From contig CAWFZW010000004.1 in NCBI GenBank assembly GCA_963820485.1, forward strand, positions 61,743-125,742: a stretch of DNA of 64,000 nt. Direction: 5' to 3'. Made by a program: the position numbers and the translations under genes. Below the pieces are notes generated by a model, which saw nothing but the letters and a program-made list of their open reading frames with translations, had not been told where the DNA came from and did not search any database. The stretch's first letter is position 1. Each line of letters begins with the position of its first letter. The stretch is from Candidatus Nealsonbacteria bacterium. Lineage in GTDB: Bacteria; Patescibacteriota; Minisyncoccia; Minisyncoccales; JBGOYX01. Of the stretch, positions 1-63,615 are shown piece by piece.

Positions 1-186
1 AAATTCGCAATTTGGCCCAGTCCGACTAACTGCAGAACCATCAGGACAAATCTTTGCCTCTTGAGTGCAAGCAACTGGTTTTGGTGCCTTCTTTACCAAA
101 AAATAATACGTTCCTCCTCCTAAAGCAAGAACTCCAATAATTATTAAGACTATTAAAATTGGTGCAACGCCTTTATTGTTTTTCAT
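1..186 (-). CDS. small exported/membrane-anchored Cys-containing protein, 5' part only (gene runs off the window start)
   Basis: ATG at 186-184. Translates MKNNKGVAPILIVLIIIGVLALGGGTYYFLVKKAPKPVACTQEAKICPDGSAVSRTGPNCEF with no stop before position 1. Hydrophobic N-terminal anchor. Junction module copy A lies 9 nt upstream. Confidence 0.45.
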   Translation of the reverse strand, partial: MKNNKGVAPILIVLIIIGVLALGGGTYYFLVKKAPKPVACTQEAKICPDGSAVSRTGPNCEF

Positions 187-195
187 ATTATTTGA

Positions 196-292
196 TTTTA
201 CCAAAAAACCGCCTTCTTGGCGATTTTTAGGCCTCTCGGTCTCTCGATAAAAAATGTTGATGGCTCGCTCTAGCGGACGATTTTAGAACTTT
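196..292 (-). repeat. junction module copy A (hairpin + TTTTTTGGTAAAAT) plus 3' element AGTTCTAAAATCGTCCGCTAGAG
   Basis: Minus strand reads AAAAATCGCCAAGAAGGCGGTTTTTTGGTAAAAT. The -10-like hexamer ends 9 nt before the ATG at 186. Confidence 0.7.
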
Positions 293-378
293 GAGATGGG
301 AGGAAGTATATAAATATCCTGAGGTAGCTTTAGGACAGATAAGGGAATTGATTGGACGACGTTATAACCTATTTGGCC

Positions 379-870
379 TTACAAACTAATTAGTTTTTGA
401 GGGTCATCAGGTAAATGGTCAATTCCCTCAAATTCTTTTACTACAATTGATTTTATTCTTTGTTTAATTTCTGGCCTAACGAAAGTGATTGTCATTTCTT
501 TTTCTCCGCCAATACTTTCACAGTCATCTTCAATTAACACATCGGGGATAATTTTTTCAGCAATATCTTTATAAGATTCTCCATCTTGGCGATAAAAAAT
601 TTGTCCTTTTGGAAAATTATATTTTTCTAAAACTGATTTATCTTTTTCAACATCATCAGAATTTTCGTGAGAACTTAAATAGATGATTTCTGCACCCTTC
701 ATTTCCCAACCCTTTAACTTTTCAACCGCATTACCAATAGGAACATAAGAAGCAAAATCAAGAACAGATGCTTCGTCTTCAGTAACTTGTTTAGCTATGT
801 CTTCCCTTCTATGCCCCATTCCACCCTTATGCATTATCGTTGTTCCGTGTAGAAATGCTAAAATCTTCAT
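379..870 (-). CDS. hypothetical protein (cassette ORF, function unknown)
   Basis: 163 aa ORF in the track. Module copy B is immediately upstream, with TAGAAT ending 6 nt before the ATG. Confidence 0.6.
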   Translation of the reverse strand: MKILAFLHGTTIMHKGGMGHRREDIAKQVTEDEASVLDFASYVPIGNAVEKLKGWEMKGAEIIYLSSHENSDDVEKDKSVLEKYNFPKGQIFYRQDGESYKDIAEKIIPDVLIEDDCESIGGEKEMTITFVRPEIKQRIKSIVVKEFEGIDHLPDDPQKLISL

Positions 871-876
871 ATTCCC

Positions 877-945
877 ATTCTACCAAAAAACCGCCTGCTT
901 GGCGATTTTTGTTGGCTCCCCTGGTTGGACGATGTTAGAACCTGG
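877..945 (-). repeat. junction module copy B
   Basis: Minus strand reads CAGGTTCTAACATCGTCCAACCAGGGGAGCCAACAAAAATCGCCAAGCAGGCGGTTTTTTGGTAGAAT. Confidence 0.7.
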
Positions 946-977
946 TTAGATGAAATAAATGGGTTTTTATCTAAGAC

Positions 978-1394
978 TTACAATATAGATTTCTTTAACC
1001 AATAATAGCTGCTAAAGAAAAGTACAACATCAATAAAAATAAGTTTTCCTATCTGGCCAAAATTAAATAGGCCATATATCACAGTTACAATAGTTTGAAT
1101 TATTACGAAAACCATTGTTAGTCCAATACTAATTTTAACAATATCTGCCCTAGGAATAATAGCTTTATTGAGGACTGTTCTTATTCCGACTTTAGACGAA
1201 TAAAAGAAAACAGCGGCTATAATTAACCACTCTAAAATACTTAGAATATTCTCACCTAAAAAACCAGACAGTAGCCAAGAAATTATCCTCCAAATTATTC
1301 CAACAACAATTAAATAGACAATGATGTATGACCAAATATTAGCAATAACCCAAAATTTACTTTTTTGAGGTTTTTGTGAAGTATTCTGTTCCAT
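978..1394 (-). CDS. hypothetical integral membrane protein (cassette ORF)
   Basis: 138 aa ORF with several long hydrophobic stretches. Module copy C is upstream. Confidence 0.6.
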   Translation of the reverse strand: MEQNTSQKPQKSKFWVIANIWSYIIVYLIVVGIIWRIISWLLSGFLGENILSILEWLIIAAVFFYSSKVGIRTVLNKAIIPRADIVKISIGLTMVFVIIQTIVTVIYGLFNFGQIGKLIFIDVVLFFSSYYWLKKSIL

Positions 1395-1442
1395 TATTTT
1401 AATTTATTAAGATTTTATCTATTATAGTTACGACCTTCCCTC

Positions 1443-1549
1443 ATTCTACCAAAAAACCGCCCAAAGAAATAGGCGGAATTATCAGCTCCCCTGGTTGGAC
1501 GATGCCTGCCCCGTAGACAGCTTCGCTGTTCTACTGGGGTTAGAACCTG
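1443..1549 (-). repeat. junction module copy C, with a 35 nt hairpin inserted in the 3' element
   Basis: Minus strand reads CAGGTTCTAAC[CCCAGTAGAACAGCGAAGCTGTCTACGGGGCAGGC]ATCGTCCAACCAGGGGAGCTG...CCGCCTATTTCTTTGGGCGGTTTTTTGGTAGAAT. Confidence 0.7.
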
Positions 1550-1575
1550 TTTTTTAGATATAATTATCAATTAAA

Positions 1576-2190
1576 TCACCACTTTATTAAAAATTCGTGA
1601 TATTCGTCCCCTCTGTGGACACACTTTGTTTCTTCTCCTATTGTCTCTTTTCCAGTTATTACCTGGATTATACTGGAATAATATCCTGTAAGAAAATAGC
1701 AGTAATCACGCGGCGAGTTAATCGGATAAACAGGATAGTCTTTAAGCCTGAGAATTGCATATTTTTTTTCTTCGCTATATTCTGGCACCGTAAACTCTCC
1801 GACTGTAAAGTACATTCTGTACATCTTCGAACTTAATTTAGCAGCCTTCTCGATAGAAATTAGATATTTTGTCCAAATCGTTATAATATTAGGAAACTTA
1901 AAACAAAACTTTCCCATTTCTTGAAATTTTTGTTCATCGTAATGAAAAAGCTTTCTAAGAAGTACAAAGGTAATAACACTCCACCATAGAGGATAAAAAG
2001 CCATCGCTTTTAACTTTTCGTATTTAATCGGACAACCGAGGCTTGACATCGCTTCTTCTAATTTCTTTAGCCCTTCTTTTTTATTTTCCCGAAGAATATA
2101 TTTTCCGTAGTTTTTTAATGCTAATCCTCTTATTTCCCCCTTAACATTCATTATTTTTTCTAATTCTTCCTTGGATATTATTGGTTCCAT
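1576..2190 (-). CDS. hypothetical protein (cassette ORF)
   Basis: ORF 1576..2244 in the track begins at a TTG inside the module. ATG at 2190 (MEPIISKEELEK...) lies 8 nt after the TAGAAT of module copy D, so the start is placed there. Confidence 0.6.
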   Translation of the reverse strand: MEPIISKEELEKIMNVKGEIRGLALKNYGKYILRENKKEGLKKLEEAMSSLGCPIKYEKLKAMAFYPLWWSVITFVLLRKLFHYDEQKFQEMGKFCFKFPNIITIWTKYLISIEKAAKLSSKMYRMYFTVGEFTVPEYSEEKKYAILRLKDYPVYPINSPRDYCYFLTGYYSSIIQVITGKETIGEETKCVHRGDEYHEFLIKW

Positions 2191-2198
2191 ATTACCCC

Positions 2199-2267
2199 AT
2201 TCTACCAGAAAACCGCCCCAACAATAAGGCGGTATTATCCACAAGCTGACTCCCCTGATCCAACGCC
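2199..2267 (-). repeat. junction module copy D
   Basis: Minus strand reads GGCGTTGGATCAGGGGAGTCAGC...CCGCCTTATTGTTGGGGCGGTTTTCTGGTAGAAT. Confidence 0.65.
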
Positions 2268-2452
2268 TTGCTCGTCTGAATTTTTAATAAAGGAGGGATA
2301 TTAAAACATGTTTTACTACCTAAAAAATTCGGCGATGAGACCACCTTCTAATAGCTTACGTTTTATAGTGAGTAGGACGCTCAATATACCGGGCGGCGTA
2401 CCGCCCGTTATAAAGATTTTTAATTTTTGTAAACAATAGAACTTCTAATTAT

Positions 2453-3199
2453 CTAATCAGTAACTTTTATTGTGGTCGTATAAACCATCTCGTCGTTATA
2501 ATAGATATTTAAATCAAATTCTCCTTTTCCAACTATCCTGGGTAAATCTGAGCCGGTTCCTGTGTCCCTTCCTTCTAACTTTTGTTTGTAGCCTGAGGAA
2601 GTAAACGCAACTTCTCCAGTAATCTGATTTATTGCTTCATAATATGCTTCGCCCTTGGCTGTGGATTTCACGCCGACAAAATCAATTTCTATGGCATCAG
2701 TTGTTTTAAACTCGGTTGTCGGTATAGGAATATTGTTTGGACCTGGTGGCATTCCCAGCTTCATTTTAGAGATAACAATCTTGTTAAAATATTGAGAATA
2801 AGAAGGGGGTTCGGAACATACTTCTTTCTTACAGAATAATCCTTTTTCGCAGTCTTTGTATGTTGAACAAACATCTTTTTTCTTCCCTTCTGTACACTTA
2901 CCACTTACGCAATAATTTGTTAAACAATCTACTTTAGCAATACAGGGGTCACCTCTTTTTCCTTCAGTGCATTTATTGGTAACGCAAAAATTAGTTTTAC
3001 AATCTGCTTTTATTTCACAATTTGATCCTGCCTCGCCAGAAGAACAAATTTTATTCGCGCATTTTAATCCTGTTTCACAGGTTTCTGTACTTTTACAGAC
3101 CGCACCCTCTGGAAGTTTTCTCAAGAAAAAATACCATCCCCAAAGCCCAAGCACTGCTAAAATAACGATAACAAAAATAATAATAACTATTTTTTTCAT
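2453..3199 (-). CDS. secreted/membrane-anchored cysteine-rich repeat protein
   Basis: 248 aa. N-terminal hydrophobic anchor (IIIFVIVILAVLGLWGWYFF) followed by five CxxxxC(x)nC modules (for example GDPCIAKVDCLTNYCVSGKCTEG). Module copy E is upstream. Confidence 0.7.
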   Translation of the reverse strand: MKKIVIIIFVIVILAVLGLWGWYFFLRKLPEGAVCKSTETCETGLKCANKICSSGEAGSNCEIKADCKTNFCVTNKCTEGKRGDPCIAKVDCLTNYCVSGKCTEGKKKDVCSTYKDCEKGLFCKKEVCSEPPSYSQYFNKIVISKMKLGMPPGPNNIPIPTTEFKTTDAIEIDFVGVKSTAKGEAYYEAINQITGEVAFTSSGYKQKLEGRDTGTGSDLPRIVGKGEFDLNIYYNDEMVYTTTIKVTD

Positions 3200-3238
3200 A
3201 TTTTTATTAATTATATTTAGTAGATGACCTTTTCTTCT

Positions 3239-3280
3239 ATTCTACCAAAAAACCGCCCTCTTGAGAAAGTGGCCGAAATC
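3239..3280 (-). repeat. junction module copy E
   Basis: Minus strand reads GCCGATTTCGGCCACTTTCTCAAGAGGGCGGTTTTTTGGTAGAAT. Confidence 0.65.
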
Positions 3281-3307
3281 GGCTCCGGAGGTAGGATTCG
3301 AACCTCT
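3281..3307 (-). other. tRNA 3'-end fragment (T-loop + 3' acceptor strand only), candidate att-type remnant
   Basis: Minus strand reads AGAGGTTCGAATCCTACCTCCGGAGCC. GGTTCGAATCC is the canonical T-arm signature. No D-arm or anticodon arm precedes it, because the nrdG stop is 7 nt upstream. Confidence 0.6.
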
Positions 3308-3314
3308 TTAAAAA

Positions 3315-4010
3315 TTACCTTACCTGACAAATCTCAAAAAATGGCGCGATGACTTTTTGAATTTCCAATAGAAATTCTTGAGGATAGGGTTTTATTTTTT
3401 CAAATTTGGGGTTAATTGTTTTTTCCGGCCGAAAATTCTGCAAATAGTATCTTTTAGCTCCTCTAATCCATTTTGCCATTTCTATTACATCTTCTTTTTT
3501 GTGTAAAGTAGGAACAATAGTGCTTCTAAATTCATAATCAACTCTCTCTTCTTTTAAAATATCAATGCTTTTTTGGATTTTTTTTATATCAACTTTTGCT
3601 CCGGAAAAATCACTGTATCTTTCTTTTGGCCCTTTAATGTCCATTGCAATATAATCAATTAATTTTTGGTCAATTAGATTTTTTAATAATTTTGGGTCTG
3701 AACCATTGGTATCTAATTTTACCAAAAATCCCATTTTCTTTATTTTTTTAATGAGCGGCACCAAACCCTTAGTAGTTGTCGGTTCTCCGCCGCACAAAAC
3801 TACGCCGTCAATCAATTCTTTTCTTTCCTTTAAAAAATTAAAAAATTCAATTTCTGAAATTTTTGGTTGATTTTTTATTTTTTCCGGTAAAACAAATTCA
3901 GAACTGTAACAAAAAGGACAGCGAAAGTTACAGCCAGTAAGAAAAACAGTGGCCGCCAAGCGACCCGGAAAATCAATAAGAGTTAATTTTTGAATGCCAG
4001 CTATTTGCAT
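3315..4010 (-). CDS. nrdG: anaerobic ribonucleoside-triphosphate reductase activating protein (radical SAM)
   Basis: 231 aa. CNFRCPFCYS is the CxxxCxxC radical-SAM motif. Sits directly downstream of nrdD. Confidence 0.9.
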   Translation of the reverse strand: MQIAGIQKLTLIDFPGRLAATVFLTGCNFRCPFCYSSEFVLPEKIKNQPKISEIEFFNFLKERKELIDGVVLCGGEPTTTKGLVPLIKKIKKMGFLVKLDTNGSDPKLLKNLIDQKLIDYIAMDIKGPKERYSDFSGAKVDIKKIQKSIDILKEERVDYEFRSTIVPTLHKKEDVIEMAKWIRGAKRYYLQNFRPEKTINPKFEKIKPYPQEFLLEIQKVIAPFFEICQVR

Positions 4011-4023
4011 TTAAGCTCATTGA

Positions 4024-6175
4024 TTACCATTCTAAAGTTTTCGTAATTTTGAATTCTTTTCTTTCTTTAAATTCTTCTTGTTTCCCTTCATTCCATTGAT
4101 CACCGGCCTTAAATACCCCACTACTCTTGAATAAACTTCGCAAGGCTGTTTGATTGTGCATTCTCGGACAAAAAAGTGTTCTCCTTCCAGATAACCATGA
4201 CTGGGACAAATTGAAAAAGTCGGAGTTAAAGTGATATAAGGCAAATGGAAATTTTCAAAAACTTTTTTAATCAAATTTTTAACCGTCTGGATATCAGAAA
4301 TTCTTTCTCCCAAAAAGAGATGTAAAACTGTGCCGCCAGTATATTTACACTGAATTTCATCTTGAAGTTTTAAAGCCTCAAAAGCATCATCGGTGTAATT
4401 ACCGGCAATTGGCTGGAGTTTGTATAATAAGGAACTTTTTTTGTTCCAGCACGAAATAATGTCCGGATATTTTTCTTTATCTTTTTGAGCGAAACGATAA
4501 GCAGTAGATTCGGCTGGCGTTGCTTCTAAGTTATAAATATTGCCAGTTTCTTTTTGATATTCAATTAATTTTTCTCTCATAAAATTTAAAATTTCTAAAG
4601 CAAATCTTCTTCCTCTTTTTGAAGCGATATTTTCTCCCAATAAAATTCAAAAGGGCTTCGTTCATTCCTACCAAACCAATGGTTGAAAAATGATTGGCAT
4701 AATAACCTCCTCTTGTTTTTTTAATCCCTGCAAATAAAATTTTGAATAAGGATAAAGACCTTTTTCAATAAAATTTTCCAAAGTTTTTCTTTTGATCTCC
4801 AAACTCTCTTTTGCCAAATCCATCATTTTCCCAAGTCTTTCAAAAAATTCTTTTTTGGTTTTTGACAAATAGCCAATTCTGGGCAAGATTCATTGTTACA
4901 ACGCCAGAGACTGCCAGTTAAGCTGCCGCTCCAAACAATCCTCCGCCGCCTCGGTTATAAAGTTCGGTTAAATCTCAAACTGAAGCCTGCAGCACATTGA
5001 CCTTACATCATCTGGTTTCATTTCGGAATTAATGTAATTGGCGAAATAATTTGTGCCGTATTTTGCCGAGGCCTCAAAAATAAGATCAAAAGCCGGGTCA
5101 TCCCAAGGAAAATCTTTAGTGATATTAATGGTGGGAATGGGAAAATGAAAGGGCCTTCCTGATTTATCTCCTCCTACCATCGTTTCATAAAAAGCCTTAT
5201 TAAAGATTTTCATTTCTTCTTCAAATTCCCGTAAGTTTCATTCTGAGGTTTCCGCCAATAATCACAGGTTGTTTGGCGAAAACTGGAGAAGGTTTAAGGT
5301 CTAAAGTAATATTAGTAAATGGACATTGAAATCCGACCCGGGTAGGAACTGCCATATTAAATAAAAATTCCTGTATAGCTTGTTTTACTTGTTGATAATT
5401 TAAATTGTCATAACGAATGAAAGGAGCAACAAAGTGTCAAAATTTGAAAAAGCAACAGCGCCAGCCGTTTCGCCTTGAAGAGTATATAAGAAAATTTACT
5501 GCCTGGCCTAAAGATTACCCTGAAAATGTTTTGCGGGTTTTGATTCAATTTTTCCCGGAACTCCTCCAAAACCTTTAAGCAATAAATCATACAAATCCCA
5601 TCCGGCACAATAAGGACCGAGAGTATCTAAATTATGGATATGAAAATCTCCGGATTCATTTGCTTCTCTGATTTCTTTTGGATAAATTTTGTTAAGCCAA
5701 TATTTTTTAACAATGTAAGAAACTCCGTAATGATTTAATCCCTGCAAAGAAAAAGCCATGTTGGCATTTTCTTGAACTTCCCAGTCAAGTTTCTCCAAGT
5801 ATTGATCAATTTTTCAACTGCCTCTTCGGAAAACTGTCACTGCTTCCCTGATTCTTCTTCTTTGTTCTCTGTAAAGAATATAAGCTTTCGCAGTTTCAAC
5901 TAAGCCTTCCAAAATTAAAACTTCTTCTACGAGATCTTGAATCTGTTCAACATCAGGAATTTCTTCTTGTGTGCGACCAAAACGGCGATTTAAAATTTTA
6001 ACAATCGGCGATTTAAAATTTTAACAACTTTTTCAGAAATTCTTTTTGATTTTTTCCCATCGCCCTGGCCGGTAGCTGTTATGGCTTTAAAAATAGCGTT
6101 GGTAATTTTTTCTTGGTCGAAGTCAACAATAGTTCCGTCTCTTTTTTTAACTTTAGTAATTTTATTTTGAGCCAT
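4024..6175 (-). CDS. nrdD: anaerobic ribonucleoside-triphosphate reductase, interrupted by several frameshifts and a 23 nt tandem duplication
   Basis: Fragments 5990..6175 (ATP-cone, KKRDGTIVDFDQEKI), 5508..5798, 4968..5213, 4668..4886, 4032..4640 and 4024..4209. The C-terminal glycyl-radical region is RVVGYLRPV / WNEGKQEEFKERKEF. Confidence 0.85.
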
Positions 6176-6366
6176 GGCGATAAAAAACGCACCTTTTTTA
6201 TATCTTATAACAAACTGGCGATATTCCTTAAAGGTGCGGTATAAAAAAATCTCTTATAAAGAAGAATGTTATTTCATTTTAACTCAATAAAAAACTCCGT
6301 CAAATGGAGTCAAATTCTGTTAAAAATTGGAGTTATACACACCTTCAAAAACCCCGTTTAGCGAGG

Positions 6367-7297
6367 TCAAAAACCAGTAGCAATGACACTTACCTTTATT
6401 TCTCCTTCTTTCAAATTTTTATCTTTTAAGGCTCCAAAAATTACCTTAGCTTCTGGGTTAATTTCTTGGGTAATTAATTTAGCCACTTCGTCTATTTCAG
6501 AAAGGCTTAAGGTCGTCACCTCCTGAAATATTAAATAAAACTCCTTTTGCTCCTTTGCAAGATATATTAAGCAAGGGAGAATTAATTGCCCGCTTTGCTG
6601 CCTCAGTGGCTCTGTTTTCTCCACAAGCTGAACCTATTCCAAACAAAGCTGTGCCAGAATTTTTCATTATTGAATAAACATCAGCAAAATCAACATTTAT
6701 TATGCCAGGTAAAAAAATTAAATCAGTAATTCCTTGAACTGCTTGTCTTAAAATATCATCGCAAACCCAAAAAGCGGCAGAAACAGAAGTTTTAGGATCC
6801 AGATTTTCCAATAATTTATCATTTTCAATTGTAATCAAACTATCAACTTTTCCTTTTAGTAGTCTTTCAGTATTCTCAGCAATTTTCCTACGGAAAATTC
6901 CCTCAAAGGAAAAAGGTAGAGTAACTATTGCCACGGTCAAAGCTCCTGAATTTTTGGAAATCTCGGAAATAATTGGCGAAGCTCCGGAACCCGTACCTCC
7001 GCCCAAACCACAAGTAATAAAAACCATATCAGAATTTTTTAAAACTTCTTGAATTTCGTTTTTGCTTTCCTGGGCTGCCTTTTTTCCAATTTCAGGATTC
7101 ATACCGGTTCCTAAACCCTGAGTAATATTTTTCCCAATTCTTAATTTGAAATCAGCTTTAGTTTTCTTTAAATCCTGGTCATCGGTATTAATAGCAATCA
7201 ACTCAATTCCTTTAATTTTAGCTTTCCTCATTCTTAAAATGGCATTACATCCTGAACCTCCAACCCCTACTACTTTAATTTTGGTAATAGATTTCAT
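6367..7297 (-). CDS. ftsZ: cell division protein FtsZ (one frameshift near 6500-6620)
   Basis: Fragments 6497..7297 and 6367..6624. Motifs GVGGSGCNA and GLGGGTGSGASPI (tubulin signature). Confidence 0.9.
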
Positions 7298-7394
7298 AAA
7301 TTTATTGCCGAATCAAGGTTCTCGCCGTAGGCGAGGTTCTTATTTTTGTTATTGTTTTCATGGTATAAAAATTTAACCGCTAACGTAGAAATTT

Positions 7395-8616
7395 TCATGG
7401 TATAAAAATTTTAAAAATTCTTTTAATTTTTGTCCCCATCCCTTCTCCAAATTCAAAAGTTTTTCCTTCTGCCAAATCTGTTCCTAAAAGAACCAATCCG
7501 CCGCAAACTGCCAAAGCGGGGTCTTCTAAATTGGAAATTCCCTGGGGTTTTCCTATTTTAACCGGCAACTTTAACTCTTTTTTAGCTAATTCTGCTATTT
7601 TTGGCAATTTTGCCCCTCCGCCGGTTAAAACCACGCCAGCAGGCAATAGTTTTTCCTTGCCAATTTTCTTTAATTCTTTATAAATTTGACTGAAAATTTC
7701 AGAAACCCTTGGTTCAATAATGTTTGTTAATTGTTTCTGAGAAAAAATCAATGGAGCATCTTCGCCTATTTCAATTTTTTCTTTTTTTCTACTAACAGAT
7801 TTTTTATTATTCCCCTTTAAAGAACAAGTTCCGTATTCTATTTTTATTCTCTCTGCAATGTCAATGTCGGTTTTCAAACCAATAGCAATATCATTTGTAA
7901 TATTAGCGGAACCGATTGGTAAAATTATTAGATGAATTAAATCTCCTTCTTCAAAAACAGCTAAACCCGTAGTGCCTGCTCCAACATCAACTAAAGCCAC
8001 TCCCAATTCTTTTTGTCGGGAAGTTAAAACTGCTCGAGCTGAAGCTATTGGCGAAGGAATTCTGTCTAAAATTTGAAGGTCAGAATTTAAAACGGCTTCA
8101 GTCAAATTTTTTAAATAGGGTGAAAAACCGCCCAAAGCTAAAACGTCAGCTTCTAATCTCACTCCTCGAAGTCCTAAAACTTCTTTTATTCCACCTTGGC
8201 CGTCAACGATGAATTCTTTGGGAGAAACATCAAAAATTTCTTTGTTCGAAGGAAGAGAAAACGTCTGGGCGGCTTGAAAAACTCTTTCTATGTCTTCTTC
8301 AGAAATTTTTTGGTCAGCTCGGGAAACAGCTACCGTACCATGAGAAGAAGCAGAAAAAATGTGGCCGCCATTGATATTAAGAAAAACTGAATCAATTTTT
8401 AAACCATTATCATGCTGAATTTTTTCCAAAATATCGGTTAAGACAGTCAGAAACTTCTTCCATACCGATAACCACTCCTTTTCTGACTCCAGCCGCAGGT
8501 TCCTGAATTAAAGACATAACTTCTAATTCTGATTCTTTTGGTTTTTTTGAAGCAACTAAAATCTTTATCGCGCTTGTTCCAATATCTAAGCCAGTTATAA
8601 TAGATGGCTTTGCCAT
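7395..8616 (-). CDS. ftsA: cell division protein FtsA (frameshift near 8410-8430)
   Basis: Fragments 8410..8616 (ITGLDIGTSAIKILV) and 7395..8429 (actin-like ATPase, VDVGAGTTGLAVF). Lies directly upstream of ftsZ. Confidence 0.88.
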
Positions 8617-29664: not shown

Positions 29665-29745
29665 AAAAAATCGTCCGACCTGTAAGGTATAGGGCGATTT
29701 TTTTATTTGGCAGGTCGTCTATCGGACAATGTTAGATCCTGTCTG
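29665..29745 (-). repeat. junction element copy J (3' element with exact ATCTAAC core; hairpin variant; no -10)
   Basis: Minus strand reads CAGGATCTAACATTGTCCGATAGACGACCTGCCAAATAAAAAAATCGCCCTATACCTTACAGGTCGGACGATTTTTT. Confidence 0.6.
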
Positions 29746-29746
29746 G

Positions 29747-30367
29747 TTATAATAGGCCCAATTTAATTAACTCTTTCCTTAATTGCCCTGGTGCCTGAAA
29801 AACAATTCCGTACATCCCTAATTTCTCCGCCGTTTCAACATTAACCTTTTTATCGTCTACAAAAACACAAGCTTCGGGTGGAAGGTTCAGCCTTTTAAGT
29901 GCGATTTCGTAAATCTTTTGGTCAGGCTTCTTAAAACCTTCTTCGCAAGACCAAATAAAAGTTTCTACTCCAATGTCTCTAAGCCTCTGAAGCCTTCCCA
30001 TTTCTTCATCAGCCAAAAGAGAAGTTTTATTTATATTTGCTAAGACAGCTAAACGAATCCCTCTTTTGTGTAATTCGCTTAGAATATCCCATGATGGCTT
30101 GATATCTTTAGACCACTCTTTATACGAGTTAAACCAGAAATTATCGGTAAATTCTTTAGATAATTCAATCCCTCTCTGTATTTTAATTTCATTCCAAAAA
30201 ATACTTTCATCAATCTCCCCCTTACCCCATCTATCAAAAAGCGGCTTAACGATTTCTTCTGTTTTCTCTGTGCCGATGTTTAATTCATCGGCGATCTTTT
30301 TATACAATACCGTCCAATTTTCTGTTGCCAAAACTGAACCTAAATCAAAAATCACTGCTTTTATCAT
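29747..30367 (-). CDS. HAD-superfamily hydrolase (YihX-like, IFDLGSVL motif I); cassette ORF
   Basis: 206 aa. Motif I VIFDLGSV and motif IV FVDDKKVN. Module copy F has TAGAAT 6 nt before the ATG. Confidence 0.8.
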   Translation of the reverse strand: MIKAVIFDLGSVLATENWTVLYKKIADELNIGTEKTEEIVKPLFDRWGKGEIDESIFWNEIKIQRGIELSKEFTDNFWFNSYKEWSKDIKPSWDILSELHKRGIRLAVLANINKTSLLADEEMGRLQRLRDIGVETFIWSCEEGFKKPDQKIYEIALKRLNLPPEACVFVDDKKVNVETAEKLGMYGIVFQAPGQLRKELIKLGLL

Positions 30368-30373
30368 AAATTT

Positions 30374-30457
30374 ATTCTACCAAAAAACCGCCTTCTTTTA
30401 AAAGCGGCTCCCCTTCTGTGAGGGCTAGTCAGGGTGGCTAAGCAGATTCAAACCAGT
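30374..30457 (-). repeat. junction module copy F
   Basis: Minus strand reads CTGGTTTGAATCTGCTTAGCC...CAGAAGGGGAGCCGCTTTTAAAAGAAGGCGGTTTTTTGGTAGAAT. Confidence 0.65.
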
Positions 30458-34488: not shown

Positions 34489-36937
34489 TTAAATTACTAT
34501 ATTAATTAATTTTCCGGGGACAAAAATTACTTTTTTAACCTTTTTCCCTTCTATCCATCTTTTAACTTTTTCTCTTTCTAATGTCAATTTTTTAGCTTTC
34601 TCTTCTGAAGTATTAGCATCAACCTCAACTTTATCCCGAACCTTGCCATTTACCTGGATTACCAAAGTTATTATTTTTTCTTTAAGTAATTTTTTGTCAT
34701 ATTTTGGCCACGATTGATTGTGAATACTTTCTTCATGCCCCAGTTGATGCCACAATTCTTCAGTAATATGGGGAGCAAACGGCGAAAGTAAAATCAGCGT
34801 TTTTTTAAGCGTATCTCTGCCGATTTCTGATTTATTTTCTGATGCAAAATTAATAAATTCCATAAAAGCTGCGACTATTGTATTAAATTTTATCGCTTCC
34901 AAATCATTATCTATTTTTTTATTTAATTTGTTTATCTCCCTTATTGCGCTTTTGCTACTTTTCTTATTATTCTGACAATTCTAAAAATAATTTCCAAACT
35001 TTTTCCAAAAACCTGGAAACGCCTTTTACTCCATGAGTACTCCAAGAAATGGCTTGGTCAAAAGGCCCCATAAACATTTCATAAAGACGCAGAGTATCTG
35101 CTCCGTATTCCTTGATAATATCATCGGGGTTAATTACATTTCCGAAAGATTTTGACATTTTCCTACCGTCTTCCGCCAAGACAATTCCGTGAGAAGTCCT
35201 TCTTTTATAGGGTTCTGGCTGCGGAGCTATACCAATATCAAAAAGAAATTTATAGATAAATCGTGAATATAAAAGATGTAAAGTAGTGTGTTCGAAACCG
35301 CCATTGTACCAATCGACTGGAAGCCAATATTTTAATTTCTTTTTATCTGCCAAAACTTCATCATTTTTGGGGTCGGTGTATCGCATAAAATACCAGTTAG
35401 AACCTGCCCAATTAGGCATAGTATCAGTTTCTCTTTTGGCGGGACCTTTGCAGTTTGGACACTTTGTATTTACCCATTCAGAAATTTTAGCTAAAGGCGA
35501 CTCACCCGTTCCGGTAGGTTGATATTTTTCTATATAAGGTAGTTCAACCGGCAAATCTTTTTCCGGCACTGGGACTTGACCGCATTTTTCGCAATGGATA
35601 ATCGGAATCGGTTCTCCCCAATAATGCTGTCTGGAAAAAATCCAGTCTCTTAATTTATAGCAGATCGTTTTTTTGCCTGAATTTCTCTTTACTAAAAATT
35701 CGGCAATTCTCTCTTTGGCAATTTTTGAGTCTAATCCGTCAAATCTTCCTGAATTTATTAAAATTCCTTCTCCTTCATAAGCTTTCTCAAAAGTCCCGCT
35801 GGAAACCACTAAGGGCGCCTCTTCCGGCAATTCTTCTTCATGGGGTTTTATTACTTCAATCATTGGCAAATTATATTTTTTGGCAAAATCAAAATCTCTC
35901 TGGTCGTGGCAAGGAACGGCCATTATAGCTCCCGTGCCATAAGAAGATAAAACATAATCTGCAATAAAAATAGGAATTTCCCGATTATTTACGGGATTTA
36001 CGGCTTTTACCCCCTTAATTTCTACCCCGCTTTTCTCTTTTATTTCAGAAATTCTTTCTCTTTCGCTTTTTCTTTTTGATTTTTCAATATAATCTTCAAT
36101 AAATCTGTAATTTTTAATTTGAGGTTTCAATTTTTCAATAATAGGATGCTCGGGTGCCGCCACTAAATAAGTGCAACCAAACAAAGTGTCCGGCCTGGTG
36201 GTAAATACCTCAATTGAAAATTCAGAATTAATAATCGAAAATTTGATTTCAGCTCCTTCCGATCTCCCAATCCAGTTTATCTGCTGAATTTTAACCTTTT
36301 CCGGATAATCAACTTTTTTTAAATCGTCTATTAATCTATCGGCGTAAGCTGTAATTTTTATCATCCACTGTTTTAATATTTTTTCCCCCACTTCTGCTCC
36401 GCATCGTTCGCATTTTCCATCTACCACCTCCTCGTTGGCTAAACCGATTTTACAGGAAGGACACCAATTAACCGGAATTTCAGCCTGATAAGCTAATCCT
36501 TTTTCAAAAAGTTTCAGAAAAATCCATTGGGTCCATTTATAATATTTAGGATCGGTGGTGTTTATTTCTCTAGACCAGTCAAAAGAAAGACCCATATTTT
36601 TTATTTGTTTTTTAAAATTAGCTATGTTTTTTTCGGTGGCTATCTGGGGATGAATTCTTTTTTTAATGGCATAGTTTTCCGTTGGCAGACCGAAAGCATC
36701 CCAACCAATGGGATATAAAACATTGAAACCTTCCATTCTTTTTTTCCGTGAAATGGCATCTATGGCGGCATAAGGACGAGCATGACCGACGTGGAGTCCG
36801 TCTCCTGAAGGATAGGGAAATTCAATCAAAATATATTGTTTGTTCTTCTTTGAAAAATCTTCGGCTCTATAAAATCCGTGTTGTTCCCAATAACGCTGCC
36901 ATTTAGATTCTATTTCATCTGGATTATATTTTTCCAT
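34489..36937 (-). CDS. leuS: leucine--tRNA ligase (one frameshift near 34900-34970)
   Basis: Fragments 34967..36952 (start refined to ATG 36937, [10 protein letters not shown]; HVGHARPY = HIGH; KMSKS present) and 34489..34902 (anticodon-binding/C-terminal domain). Confidence 0.93.
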
Positions 36938-37013
36938 ATTGCATTGCTTCAATATTTTTCACTTTATCATAAAAAATCGGCTTTCTCAAGCCGATTTTTT
37001 AATTTTTAATACT

Positions 37014-56716: not shown

Positions 56717-57167
56717 ATGAAGGTATTAGCTGAGAATAAAAAGGCATATTTTAATTATGAAATCCTGGAGAAGTTTGAAGCAGGGATTTCTTTGATTGGA
56801 CAGGAAGTAAAATCAATTAAAACCAAAGGGGTAAATTTAGCCGGTTCTTATGTGGTTGTAAAAGATGAAGAGGTTTTTTGGATTGGGGCAAGAATTCCTC
56901 CTTATCAGCCAAAAAATGCGCCCCCTGATTATCAACCGGAGAGGTCGCGGAAACTTCTTTTGAGAAAATCAGAAATTAAATATTTAATCGGAAAATCCCA
57001 GCAAAAAGGCTTGACTTTGATACCTTTGAAAGGTGTATAATAAAAATGGTAAAATCAAATTTGAGTTTGGAATAGCAAAAGGAAAAAAGGAATTTAATAA
57101 AAAAGAGTTAATTAAAAAAAGGGAGACAGAAAGAGAAATTAAAAGAGAATTAAATTTACGGGGATGA
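56717..57167 (+). CDS. smpB: SsrA-binding protein SmpB (frameshift near 57035)
   Basis: ORF 56717..57040 (KAYFNYEILEKFEAGISLIGQEVKS, RSRKLLLRKSEI). The C-terminal tail KIKFEFGIAKGKKEFNKKE... is in another frame and stops at 57165-57167. Confidence 0.88.
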
Positions 57168-57507
57168 AAAAGAATCGATGAAAGATCTTTATAAAATATG
57201 CAGGCTGAGTTTACTAGAATCTCAAAAAACTTCTGGTAAAAAGAATAAATGCCAATTTATTCAAACAACCCGCTTTAGCTTACGTCTAAAGCCATCTAAT
57301 TTAGTGATTCTCGATAGCTAAAATTAGGTGTCATATTATCGAGATAGATGGTTCTTTTGTCTCGCGAACTTATCAAAGCAACAGAGACAATTAGTACTAG
57401 AGCTTTTTTCTGTTTCTAATCTAGTATTTCAAAGTTAAACAGAATAATCCTGTAGAATTATTTTAAAAAGACTTTCAGATGTGGGAGCATCACCCACCAT
57501 CTCCACC
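57160..57507 (+). ncRNA. ssrA: tmRNA (SsrA)
   Basis: 5' GGGGATG pairs with 3' CATCTCC, including the G3-U pair. T-arm GTGGG-AGCATCA-CCCAC. Discriminator A + CC. Candidate tag frame GCC AAT TTA TTC AAA CAA CCC GCT TTA GCT TAC GTC TAA (ANLFKQPALAYV) at about 57251-57289. Lies next to smpB. Confidence 0.85.
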
Positions 57508-57508
57508 G

Positions 57509-61991: not shown

Positions 61992-62393
61992 TTATTCTAC
62001 TATTTTTATGATTATCTCTCTTTCTCTTGGTTGATTATCAAAATCAATAAGAACGATTTGTTGCCAAGTACCCAAAACTAATTTTCCATTTTCAATGGGA
62101 ACAGTCAGAGAAGGCTTCATTAAAGCCGCTCTGATATGGGCATAACCGTTACAATCTCCCCACTTTTTACAATGCTCATAATTCTCATTCATTGGAGCTA
62201 CAATTTCCAAGGCTCTTTTTAAATCTTTGATGGCTCCTTCTTCATATTCAATTGTGGTTAGAGCACAGGTTGAATGGGCGACAAAAATTAAACAAACCCC
62301 TTCATCAACTTTTGATTTTTCCACTTCTTTTTCTACTTGATGAGTAATATCAACAACATCTGTAAATCCCTTAGTATGAATTGAAAATCTCAT
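61992..62393 (-). CDS. yjbQ: YjbQ/UPF0047 family protein (secondary thiamine-phosphate synthase-like)
   Basis: 133 aa with a family-typical pattern (HSTCALTTIEYEEG, NGYAHIRAALM, GTWQQIVLIDFD). Module copy G has TAAGAT 7 nt before the ATG. Confidence 0.8.
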   Translation of the reverse strand: MRFSIHTKGFTDVVDITHQVEKEVEKSKVDEGVCLIFVAHSTCALTTIEYEEGAIKDLKRALEIVAPMNENYEHCKKWGDCNGYAHIRAALMKPSLTVPIENGKLVLGTWQQIVLIDFDNQPREREIIIKIVE

Positions 62394-62400
62394 ATATTTT

Positions 62401-62473
62401 ATCTTACCAAAAAACCGCCTTTAGGCGATTTTTTGTTCGGCAGGTCGTGTCTAGCGGACGATGTTAGAACCTG
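62401..62473 (-). repeat. junction module copy G
   Basis: Minus strand reads AACAGGTTCTAACATCGTCCGCTAGACACGACCTGCCGAACAAAAAATCGCCTAAAGGCGGTTTTTTGGTAAGAT. The first 12 nt are the last codons (N R F stop) of ORF 62464..62895. Confidence 0.7.
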
Positions 62474-62895
62474 TTTAGTAATAAAACAATAAAATTTACC
62501 ACTAAAAAAGATAAAATGGAAAAAATAAGTAAAATAATTATACCAGAAAGTGTTGAAATCGGTTTATTCCAATGGAAGCGTGGATAAAAACAAGAAACAA
62601 AAGCAATAATTGCGGTAAGTCCAAATAAAAATAATGATTGAATAACAGCATCGGTATCATAATTAAAAATCTTTAAAAAATACCAACCCTCATTTAAAAT
62701 AAATATCCCATTTACAAACCAACTAACTCTATCTCCAATGGTTGGATTTTCTTTAACAAATACCAAACCATCTTTAATAAAAATTCCGGGAAGTCTCTTT
62801 CCTAAAGCTAAATAAAACAAACTTATGTATAAACCAATTGGAGTTAAATAAAGTAATCTTATAATTAAATTTACGAAAATATCTATTAATTTCAT
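62464..62895 (-). CDS. hypothetical integral membrane protein (cassette ORF)
   Basis: 143 aa, 4 hydrophobic segments. Module copy H has TAAAAT 6 nt before the ATG. Confidence 0.6.
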   Translation of the reverse strand: MKLIDIFVNLIIRLLYLTPIGLYISLFYLALGKRLPGIFIKDGLVFVKENPTIGDRVSWFVNGIFILNEGWYFLKIFNYDTDAVIQSLFLFGLTAIIAFVSCFYPRFHWNKPISTLSGIIILLIFSILSFLVVNFIVLLLNRF

Positions 62896-62901
62896 TTTTT
62901 C

Positions 62902-62936
62902 ATTTTACCAAAAAACCGCCTGATTGGCGATTTTTT
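62902..62936 (-). repeat. junction module copy H
   Basis: Minus strand reads AAAAAATCGCCAATCAGGCGGTTTTTTGGTAAAAT. Confidence 0.7.
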
Positions 62937-62958
62937 GTTTACAATTACTCGCTGAATT

Positions 62959-63414
62959 TTATATACCAACATTTTGCTGAATTTGGCTTTCGGTTTTTTC
63001 GGTATTTTGGATATATTTTTTACTAATAATATAGAATAGAAAGGCTGCAATAATAAATCCGACGAAAGAATATACAAGAGCTATACCGGTTGCTTTTCCT
63101 ATAAGAATATTGAGTAAAATATATCCTCCATTTAGAACAACAAGATATGTTGTTGCTAAATTTATAATCTTATCTTTATTTTCAATAATATAAGTTTTCT
63201 TAAGGTAATTTGCAGAATAAATTGTTCCAAGCCAAATGGATAGAATCCTTATCACTAATAAAAATACCATTATTAAAAGTGATGACCCAAGTTTAATTAA
63301 CGGTAATAAAATAAAAGTTGCGACAAGACCTATTATAAATGGTATCGCAAAGCCAGCTGTTAGATAATGGGTCGCTGCAATATACCAATTAGATGATTTC
63401 TTTTTTTCTTTCAT
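62959..63414 (-). CDS. hypothetical integral membrane protein (cassette ORF)
   Basis: 151 aa, 4 hydrophobic segments. Module copy I is 45 nt upstream. Confidence 0.6.
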   Translation of the reverse strand: MKEKKKSSNWYIAATHYLTAGFAIPFIIGLVATFILLPLIKLGSSLLIMVFLLVIRILSIWLGTIYSANYLKKTYIIENKDKIINLATTYLVVLNGGYILLNILIGKATGIALVYSFVGFIIAAFLFYIISKKYIQNTEKTESQIQQNVGI

Positions 63415-63459
63415 TTTATGTAAATGTGATCATCTTAATAATTAACCGACCTTTACATA

Positions 63460-63490
63460 ATCCTACCAAAAAACCGCCTTCTTGGCGATT
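63460..63490 (-). repeat. junction module copy I
   Basis: Minus strand reads AATCGCCAAGAAGGCGGTTTTTTGGTAGGAT. Confidence 0.7.
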
Positions 63491-63615
63491 AAACCCTTAC
63501 TTCCAACTCAAACTTTGGCTAATTCCCTTCTCCCCTCCCAAACTTTTTTACTTACCTCGCTTCTTGAAAGTAGTTCTACTTTTGTAAACACCCTGAATGA
63601 TTCTTCTTTACAACC

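Follow-up and report, generated by a model that had tools for sequence, protein, structure and literature searches.

The closest published analogue of the system described here is known from T4-type phages, in which PeSL (promoter-early stem-loop) cassettes shuffle ORFans through exchange in composite promoter/terminator motifs (Arbiol et al. 2010, PMC2839356; Comeau et al. 2014, PMC4122927). In function, the integron comes nearest, but defining features of integrons are lacking here. The hypervariable regions known as tycheposons or tRNA-flanked islands in the streamlined genomes of Prochlorococcus reportedly carry partial copies of tRNA 3′ ends, together with serine or tyrosine recombinases tied to tRNA ends. 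Large serine integrase systems, with their short non-identical attB and attP sites, are a further point of comparison. We analysed a stretch of 64,000 nt from the chromosome of a Patescibacteria member (Candidatus Nealsonbacteria bacterium, contig CAWFZW010000004.1, positions 61,743 to 125,742 of the forward strand; called "the window" below), which holds three arrays of single-gene cassettes: array A behind nrdG, array B at 61992-63615, and array C behind the POR-gamma gene.

The comparisons below show the same cassette order throughout, i.e. a GC hairpin with a U-run, a predicted extended −10 element, one open reading frame (ORF), often a putative terminator of its own, and then a second junction element, termed TL, which sits 5′ of most units and closes each cassette. 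They also show that an array begins right behind a conserved gene, with 23 nt that copy the tRNA-Asn 3′ end and are termed T3. We see a slightly better than even chance that these are arrays of self-expressing single-gene cassettes that are moved by recombination at the junction sequences, primarily between T3 and TL.

The core of the hairpin-promoter module, GGCGGTTTTTTGGTAGAAT, was found nine times in the window by a pattern search that allowed up to 3 mismatches; all nine copies are on the minus strand and carry 0-2 mismatches (Table 1). Dinucleotide-preserving shuffles gave a chance expectation of 0.05 copies and no shuffle reached nine, i.e. the module recurs far beyond chance. Every copy precedes a minus-strand ORF. 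Nine copies 5′ of small ORFs had been described in an earlier note on this DNA, which was correct in this respect; a degenerate tenth copy listed there (29665-29700) also exists, as a hairpin with a T-run that lacks the −10 element. Each core copy has a 5′ arm able to pair with GGCGG, and all ten copies, including the degenerate one, form a hairpin that reaches to the T-run, with folding energies from −7.8 to −16 kcal/mol. The stem of the copy at 3239 is mismatched and has the weakest folding score (z = −0.9). A terminator scan of window positions 1-5000 yielded 10 sites, versus 3.0 expected.

In other genomes, the stem shows compensatory changes (ATCGTC/GACGG, ATTAC/GTAAT, CCTCC/GGAGG, TGCC/GGCA, CCCGAGA/TCTCGGG), and the geometry is constant, with the hairpin ending 8 nt before the hexamer (T5-6, G, G or T, then TAnnAT). 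An adjoining hairpin is present at 75% of the T-runs with an extended −10 element, versus 3.8% of the remaining T-runs. All nine window copies contain the extended −10 TGGTA(G/A)(A/G)AT (form TGGTAGAAT), and for six of them (195, 877, 2199, 30374, 62401, and 62902) the ATG follows 6-8 nt past the hexamer, matching the short distance noticed previously for six copies. For 86 of the 179 copies from other genomes, the first ATG comes 6-9 nt after the −10 element, and the distribution peaks sharply at 6 nt. Transcription is expected to start about 7 nt after a −10 hexamer. The ATG lies at this expected start, and therefore the mRNAs would be leaderless, which implies predicted leaderless mRNAs for about half of the copies in other genomes. 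Taken together, the compensatory changes, the fixed geometry and the position of the start codon thus argue for a true terminator fused to a true promoter. The interpretation of the unit as a putative intrinsic terminator joined at fixed spacing to an extended −10 promoter, already proposed in the earlier note, is well supported. In the commonest form, AAAAATCGCC-AAnnA-GGCGG, the 5′ arm TCGCCA is at the −35 position with a 17-nt spacer, so that one sequence may double as stem and −35 element; this would help to explain the uniformity of the stem. The remaining promoters of the window are ordinary TTGACA-N17-TGnTAnAAT types.

Genes with a leader of 40-55 nt carry the motif AAAGGTC(G) about 8-12 nt past the −10 element, i.e. 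at the 5′ end of the predicted transcript. It was found behind the repeated module as well as behind ordinary promoters, in the window upstream of the ATGs at 1394, 3199, 63414, 19455, and 50124, and in many other loci (e.g. L016, L044, L058, L082, L102-L104, and L117).

An exact scan with one genome per species identified at least 119 stretches of other genomes that carry the module. Nearly all are metagenome-assembled genomes (MAGs) of Patescibacteria, namely Parcubacteria, Nealsonbacteria, Paceibacterota, and TPA bins labelled "Saccharibacteria". These loci (L001-L119) were picked by the motif itself, and unbiased estimates come only from loci that were fetched through proteins; three window proteins had no exact match, and relatives were reached through homologues. 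Among the matches listed, 187 proteins downstream of the module formed 147 BLAST clusters, and 142 proteins represented 126 Pfam families. The genes include HAD hydrolases, P-type ATPases, methyltransferases, ABC transporters, GNAT and NUDIX proteins, and RsgA as well as other GTPases. This extreme diversity shows that the unit is no regulon signal, and a binding site of a transcription factor was ruled out because nearly all downstream proteins are unrelated. The module is also found 3′ of genuine genes for tRNA-Asn (L004, L041), tRNA-Gln (L007, L014), and tRNA-Asp (L114). The notion of a genome-specific mobile repeat had to be abandoned in view of this lineage-wide distribution. As an element that marks cassettes, the module retains its role for their front end, while array heads and cassette ends are best marked by T3 and TL, which the earlier note did not contain.

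The consensus of TL is aaCAGGTTCTAACATCGTCC, about 8 variable nt, and GGAGC (short form CAGGTTCTAACATCGTCC-N-GGAGC). It is present five times in the window, versus 0.01 expected, and exact TL sequences occur up to five times within 3 kb of one locus (L091). Of 129 TLs, 98 lie at most 80 nt past a stop codon of the same orientation, versus 62 of 498 random positions; the distance from TL to the hairpin-promoter is 30-49 nt in 40 of 59 pairs, and the median spacing of consecutive TLs is 782 bp. A TAA stands immediately before many TLs, which brings the site into close contact with the ORF. Several cassettes have a terminator between the ORF and TL. TL has no fold of its own, the median z of 117 TL sequences being 0.05 with 5% below −2, and it tolerates an inserted hairpin (window 1485-1549; L121). 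One TL of array B shares nucleotides with its gene: the stop codon of the 143-aa ORF is the TAA within the TL core GGTTCTAAC (62464-62473).

T3, GGTTCGAATCCTACCTCCGGAGC, agrees in 22 of its 23 nt with the 3′ terminus of genuine tRNA-Asn(GTT) genes from related genomes. It spans the region from the T-loop to the discriminator plus a C, and is located outside any tRNA gene. T3 heads arrays behind nrdG (window, L120, L121, and L124), behind rpoD-DUF2784 (L189 and L192), behind a gene for a signal-peptide peptidase (L087), and behind a gene in L055. After POR-gamma, it is degenerate in the window, exact in L106, and T3-like in L043. The layout of TL is GTTCTAAC, 13 nt, and GGGAGC, whereas the corresponding stretch of T3 and of real tRNA ends is 8 nt long. 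When T3 was examined as the border of a tRNA island, the repeated TL had the spacing of 13 nt and not 8, and most arrays were found away from tRNA genes. TL as the decayed 3′ end of a tRNA or tmRNA was rejected: ARAGORN called no tRNA at these sites, the tmRNA end of the window is unrelated, and the spacing differs.

Two further types of tRNA-like sequences were seen. Structured-looking RNAs with a T-arm and acceptor end resembling tRNA-Asn are present in L097 (about 6330-6415), L107 (about 7790-7870, minus strand), and L109 (about 7340-7430); ARAGORN called neither a tRNA nor a tmRNA for them, and the one in L107 adjoins a recombinase gene. In L005, L044, L051, L061, L070, L077, and L104, an optional T-arm-like hairpin, GCTCGGTTCGAGCGACCGAGC, separates the terminator-promoter unit from the preceding end of tRNA-Asn, T3 or TL.

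The comparison with relatives covers arrays A (nrdG) and C (POR-gamma); the loci fetched included no relative for array B. NrdG homologues with 78-94% identity are plentiful, and every contig examined has the conserved block S26 peptidase-HisRS-HIT-YqeY-YbeY-FtsA-FtsZ-NrdD-NrdG on the upstream side. The region 3′ of nrdG varies, with zero to at least six unrelated cassettes before comEC. L120 has six cassettes and then comEC, and the window has at least five after nrdG, none of them common to L121 or L124; these two hold other sets. In two species, comEC follows 9 nt past nrdG without T3, and one of them has an nrdG that is 87% identical to that of the window. The core block from S26 to NrdG is devoid of module copies in the window, L121, and L124, and the adjoining arrays have one copy per gene. 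The POR-gamma site is occupied by a HAD gene in the window, by two small ORFs in L106 and, in L043, by a uridine-kinase-like gene. Relatives thus do not hold the same ORFs in the same order; presence and absence vary extensively at both sites.

Contigs L124 and L125, which stem from two samples, are 100% identical over 8.7 kb plus 2.5 kb flanks and differ by a single block of 474 bp. This block consists of a hairpin-promoter, one ORF of 87 aa with its own terminator, and TL. It begins right after T3 (...CCGGAGCTGA) and ends with TL (...CCAGGGGAGCTGA). The block ends share only the 8-nt repeat GGAGCTGA. A contig from a third sample (L126) stops exactly at the block boundary.

Cassettes are also common to more distant genomes. 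Cassette 2 of the window, which encodes a V4R protein, is 96.6% identical (1539-2218) to the sixth and last cassette of L120 (6054-6733). The nrdG genes of the two are just 87% identical, and the V4R cassettes occupy different positions in the arrays. Relatives of the V4R ORF with 84-87% amino-acid identity are found in T3-headed arrays behind rpoD, and distant homologues (33-45%) in signalling operons without T3, TL or module motifs. Two more cassettes are common to two genomes each (L121/L073, 90.6%; L091/L117, 97.4%). Genome comparison hence shows gains, losses and swaps of whole cassettes among relatives, and the same cassette in different arrays. The previous proposal that the unit travels with single ORFs agrees with these results, because the L124/L125 block begins with the hairpin-promoter and contains one ORF, and the inter-genome cassettes keep the promoter core together with the ORF.

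The breakpoints differ between the two types of events. The L124/L125 indel breaks at the 3′ ends of T3 and TL. In the three inter-genome cassettes, similarity stops at or just 5′ of the TL core. It begins in the conserved 3′ arm and the −10 core for window/L120 and L121/L073; the 5′ end of the L091/L117 cassette lacks a hairpin-promoter module, and there the similarity begins just upstream of the ATG. The remaining junction parts, namely the variable end of TL, the linker, the loop and the 5′ arm of the hairpin, have the sequence of the resident genome. Similarity of junction spacers is higher inside a locus than across loci (0.48 versus 0.37, P = 1e-5), which is not the case for the ORFs. 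This pattern fits exchanges that would have occurred within the conserved cores.

A candidate recombinase was found at similar sites in relatives. In L087, an ORF of 525 aa with the domains Resolvase, Recombinase, and Zn_ribbon_recom adjoins an array, and the 3′ end of the gene overlaps T3 on the opposite strand. A recombinase remnant lies beside T3 in L055 (6555-6674). The family is abundant, with more than 7,500 matches at E < 1e-40 among the 8,000 candidates that share most words; it is 72-83% identical across the best 120 clusters, several of which are from named Patescibacteria lineages. The recombinase is found only as a separate element, in L087, L107, L193, and L197, and the cassettes contain one small ORF each. 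In L087, L193, and L197, three independent contexts, the gene is bounded by perfect inverted repeats of about 100 bp. The element may be invertible or IS-like. One end of it abuts a real tRNA 3′ end (Ala, Arg) or T3; at the other, a GC hairpin precedes GTTCGAAC, and 13 nt further on the final 6-8 nt of the same tRNA are repeated. The layout of TL is identical to that of this pseudo tRNA end. We therefore propose T3 as a putative B-type site, and TL as a putative P-type site, of this recombinase family.

The explanation that we favour is the following. The hairpin would block read-through from upstream, and the promoter would then yield a largely leaderless mRNA; with a terminator and its own promoter, a cassette would therefore be an insulated unit that is expressed wherever it lands. 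Cassettes would be gained and lost via recombination at the conserved junction sequences. The primary route would be site-specific recombination, as in an integron, of T3 (B-type, with the spacing of real tRNA ends) with TL (P-type, GTTCKAAC-N13-end), which would excise or insert circles. The catalyst may be the abundant large serine recombinase of Patescibacteria, acting in trans; its action on the cassette arrays is a conjecture. Homologous exchange between promoter cores and TL cores, possibly with DNA imported by competence, would then reshuffle the ORFs and leave the junction spacers resident and genome-specific. The more far-reaching claim has a substantial chance, though one well below even: Patescibacteria might possess a phylum-wide, previously undescribed integron-like cassette system, in which a serine recombinase would act in trans on T3 (attI-like) and TL (attC-like), with own leaderless promoters and several arrays behind housekeeping genes.

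Several observations weigh against this explanation. The empty nrdG-comEC site without T3 leaves the first insertion unexplained. Crossover between T3 and TL is addressed by one clean indel only (L124/L125), its 8-nt direct repeat could equally mediate a deletion that is independent of a recombinase, and the inter-genome breakpoints are not at the TL 3′ end. The window has no gene for such a recombinase (tblastn), as the earlier note had stated, and the 8-kb surroundings of the nrdG arrays in L120, L121, and L124 contain none either. The sites in the recombinase elements are inverted and not direct. Classical large serine integrases need a directionality factor for hybrid (attL-like) sites. 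The promoter, the terminator and the leaderless start are read from sequence alone, and frameshifts in core genes of the window assembly indicate that single-base details of the copies are possibly unreliable. As to these frameshifts, NrdD, FtsZ, and FtsA (window 4101-8616, minus strand) align to intact L124 proteins in 2-4 reading frames each; indel errors of the assembly are likely, the alternative being pseudogenes.

A rival explanation, which we regard as doubtful, is that the system is PeSL-like and nothing else: the junctions would be conserved as regulatory sequences (terminator, promoter and perhaps a 3′-UTR element), and cassette turnover would be a by-product of ordinary homologous or short-homology recombination, without a dedicated recombinase. 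The inter-genome breakpoints in the promoter and TL cores, with spacers of the resident type, are compatible with it, as is the L124/L125 block, since merely 8 identical nt at its borders fit slippage or short-homology deletion. No recombinase adjoins the arrays, comEC beside the nrdG array makes DNA uptake plausible, and the mechanism is documented for terminator/promoter motifs that flank ORFans in T4-type phages (PMC2839356, PMC4122927). The likeness to PeSLs extends to the composite of a terminator hairpin and a sigma-70-type promoter that flanks small genes of unknown function, to clusters in variable regions between conserved core blocks with each gene transcriptionally insulated, and to indels or replacements between close relatives that break within the motifs. 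However, a PeSL-like process leaves unexplained the near-exact conservation of the unfolded TL of about 21 nt, which often lies past a terminator, and it gives no reason why a tRNA-Asn 3′-end copy always heads the arrays or why TL shares the GTTCKAAC-N13-end layout with the sites flanking the recombinase; the homology arms measure just 18-34 bp. Unlike PeSLs, the cassettes reside in a cellular chromosome of Patescibacteria and not in a phage, a constant spacing joins the U-run to an extended −10, with mRNAs that are often predicted to be leaderless, and T3 and TL are extra, non-regulatory sites at array heads and cassette ends. Excised mini-circles are a further trait of PeSL cassettes; for the cassettes described here, circles are a prediction. 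It is improbable, in our view, that the module is generic punctuation, i.e. the standard compact terminator-promoter of streamlined genomes, with variable regions that are ordinary indel hotspots and without a role in mobility. Its lineage-wide occurrence, also after genuine tRNA genes, the very diverse genes that follow, including GTPases and P-type ATPases, the versions with other stems before LeuRS and in V4R relatives, and the array GC content, which is that of the rest of the window, would all suit punctuation. Yet presence and absence are cassette-sized and bounded by junction elements, a cassette can be much more similar between genomes than the flanking core gene, the core block from S26 to NrdG lacks copies in the window, L121, and L124 in contrast to one per gene in the arrays, and T3 and TL would be left without explanation.

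Quite improbable is a role of TL as an RNA element, i.e. as a 3′-UTR (3′ untranslated region) tag resembling a tRNA 3′ end, which would be processed or would protect the message, so that its conservation would be unrelated to DNA recombination. TL lies between stop codon and terminator hairpin in most units and would thus be transcribed, real tRNA genes are followed by the same hairpin, and an extra hairpin can be inserted in TL with the flanking parts kept. This is opposed by the lack of a predicted fold, of a partner strand for the acceptor-like helix, and of any matching Rfam family, by terminators that precede TL in several cassettes, and by the sole observed indel, which breaks exactly at the ends of TL and T3. 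A true integron, with a tyrosine recombinase IntI that acts on attI and folded attC sites, is scarcely credible, even though the resemblance is considerable: single-ORF cassettes are co-oriented, each has one conserved site, a distinct site is at the head, the content varies between strains, and in the sole observed insertion the new cassette (L124) is located at the array head. In L120, L121, and L124, the genes up to 8 kb from the nrdG arrays include no member of the Phage_integrase family, and none was seen among the Pfam-scanned genes of the window, a scan that covered part of its ORFs. TL is neither an imperfect palindrome nor folded, each cassette has its own promoter instead of a common Pc, and a genome has several arrays behind different housekeeping genes, with sites that mimic a tRNA 3′ end. 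An attC-like pairing of GGTTCTAAC with GGTAGAAT was rejected as well: 6 of 7 bases could pair, but the terminator is the only true dyad.

The recombination at T3 and TL that we favour has features of two other known systems. As in tycheposons, hypervariable regions are punctuated by copies of tRNA 3′ ends and a recombinase is tied to tRNA ends; unlike tycheposons, a cassette comprises one gene (0.4-1.5 kb) and brings no integrase, replication or packaging functions of its own, most arrays are at a 23-nt mimic of tRNA-Asn behind a protein-coding gene, and the TL spacing is 13 and not 8 nt. As in large serine integrase systems, the two sites share only a short core (GGAGC...), and a Resolvase/Recombinase/Zn_ribbon_recom family abuts such sites; in contrast, the recombinase gene lies between sites of opposite orientation, which form part of the 100-bp inverted repeats.

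Other identities of the motifs were tried and rejected. A phage origin is contradicted by their virtual absence from IMG/VR, where each motif had one match among 2.9 million viral contigs. The arrays are no compositional island, because their GC content equals that of the remaining window. By inspection, spacing and letters do not fit a sigma-54 promoter (GG-N10-GC). REP/MITE elements were discarded because the terminator hairpin is the sole dyad and no target duplication was seen, and REP/RAYT because a REP would carry its GTAG on the opposite side of the palindrome to that of GGTAGAAT. A DNA uptake sequence does not fit either, as 9 of 9 modules and 5 of 5 TLs are intergenic or overlap a stop codon, all on the gene strand. 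Rfam had no family on the junctions at gathering or permissive thresholds, and a weak match to CRISPR-DR61 (1084-1121) is inside an ORF and due to chance. Full-text literature searches found no description of such cassettes in Patescibacteria, and nothing similar is described in the Nealsonbacteria genome paper and in the Gracilibacteria "hypervariation" paper.

The features of the three arrays are compiled in Table 1. The window has a GC content of 34.5% and contains the genes for HisRS, FtsA, FtsZ, NrdD/NrdG, LeuRS, topoisomerase I (TopA), one tRNA, and a tmRNA. Functions had been assigned to several cassette ORFs from the sequence. Pfam confirmed the HAD hydrolase and UPF0047/YjbQ; the 204-aa and 163-aa ORFs gave a weak V4R and a faint HAD/LNS2 match, respectively, and no family was found for the membrane or secreted proteins or for the 151-aa ORF. 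A relative of the cassette 1 ORF, a fragment with 82% protein identity, lies behind the same module in the Nealsonbacteria contig L019. The tandem TL pair of array A looks like an emptied cassette slot. The view that core genes of the window lack the module holds for exact copies, none of which was found beside them; a version with another stem precedes the LeuRS fragment. The tmRNA gene (57160-57508, plus strand; Rfam 81 bits) was not called by ARAGORN, and its 3′ end lacks the usual GGTTCGA T-loop sequence. In one related species, NrdD (L127-L136, 2600-6004) contains an intein with a LAGLIDADG homing endonuclease and has 1134 aa, versus about 708 aa elsewhere.

Table 1. Junction elements and ORFs of the cassette arrays (window positions, unless a locus is given)
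Feature	Position	Strand	Description
GGCGGTTTTTTGGTAGAAT core copies, array A	195-213, 877-895, 1443-1461, 2199-2217, 3239-3257	minus	
GGCGGTTTTTTGGTAGAAT core copies, other arrays	30374-30392, 62401-62419, 62902-62920, 63460-63478	minus	
T3, head of array A	3282..3304	minus	GGTTCGAATCCTACCTCCGGAGC; starts 10 nt past nrdG stop (14 counting the stop)
Module 1	3239..3272	minus	imperfect hairpin CCACTTTC/GAGGGCGG, T6, TGGTAGAAT; 39-nt leader with AAAGGTC between −10 and ATG at 3199
Cassette 1 ORF	2453..3199	minus	248 aa; N-terminal transmembrane segment, Cys-rich repeats
Cassette 1 hairpin	2391..2406	minus	own GC hairpin GGGCGGTACGCCGCCC, 3′ of ORF
Degenerate TL 3′ end	2248..2261	minus	GGATCAGGGGAGTC; just 5′ of module 2
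Module 2	2199..2233	minus	ACCGCCTTA/TGGGGCGGT hairpin, TTTTCT, GG, TAGAAT; ATG 8 nt on
Cassette 2 ORF	1576..2190	minus	204 aa; weak V4R domain (Pfam)
Cassette 2 TL	1485..1549	minus	35-nt hairpin between GGTTCTAAC and ATCGTCC; end CCAGGGGAGC
Module 3	1443..1476	minus	CCGCCTA/TGGGCGG hairpin, T6, TGGTAGAAT; long leader with AAGGTCG
Cassette 3 ORF	978..1394	minus	138-aa membrane protein; no Pfam family
Cassette 3 TL	914..944	minus	exact consensus CAGGTTCTAACATCGTCCAACCAGGGGAGCC
Module 4	877..910	minus	AAAAATCGCC-AAGCA-GGCGGTTTTTT, GG, TAGAAT; TCGCCA at −35 position, spacer 17 nt; ATG 6 nt after −10
Cassette 4 ORF	379..870	minus	163 aa; faintly HAD/LNS2-like at most (Pfam)
Tandem TL pair	262..371	minus	354-371 and 262-292; no ORF between
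Linker after TL pair	229-261	minus	degenerate T-arm-like hairpin
Module 5	195..228	minus	AAAAATCGCC-AAGAA-GGCGG, T6, GG, TAAAAT; ATG 8 nt on
Cassette 5 ORF	1..186	minus	transmembrane segment and Cys motif; cut by window edge
T3-like head of array C	30432..30455	minus	degenerate, TGGTTTGAATCTGCTTAGCCACCC; directly past POR-gamma stop codon
Array C module	30374..30408	minus	CCGCTTTT/GAAGGCGG hairpin, T6, TGGTAGAAT; ATG 6 nt on
Array C cassette ORF	29747..30367	minus	HAD hydrolase, 206 aa (Pfam)
HAD cassette TL	29709..29741	minus	CAGGATCTAACATTGTCCGATAGACGACCTGCC
Hairpin and T-run without −10	29665..29700	minus	terminator only
Array B module	63460..63490	minus	TAGGAT; long leader with AAAGGTCG
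Array B cassette ORF	62959..63414	minus	151 aa; no Pfam family
Array B module	62902..62936	minus	TAAAAT; ATG 6 nt on
Array B cassette ORF	62464..62895	minus	143-aa membrane protein
Array B TL	62439..62473	minus	CAGGTTCTAACATCGTCCGCTAGACACGACCTGCC
Array B module	62401..62434	minus	TAAGAT; ATG 7 nt on
Array B cassette ORF	61992..62393	minus	UPF0047/YjbQ, 133 aa (Pfam)
Unit before LeuRS fragment (34967-36952)	36961..36999	minus	same architecture, other stem: AAAAATCGGCTT-GAGA-AAGCCGATTTTTT-A-TGATAAAGT, hairpin and T6; TTG 8 nt on
Recombinase elements	L087 1790-3500; L193 2150-4070; L197 4640-6540		

Patescibacteria, also known as the candidate phyla radiation (CPR), are host-dependent, have very small genomes and import DNA from outside. 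The arrays represent a concrete route of gene flux in these organisms, by which self-sufficient single-gene units would be exchanged at defined junctions beside essential genes; the cargo consists mostly of small membrane or secreted proteins and stand-alone enzymes. The motifs provide a sequence handle on the accessory gene pool in thousands of CPR MAGs, and they point to putative leaderless gene starts, which could aid gene calling in CPR genomes. If the link to the recombinase is true, the arrays would be a second, independently evolved integron-like system, and the short sites (about 20-30 nt) as well as the promoter-terminator unit (about 35 nt) would be useful as genetic parts.

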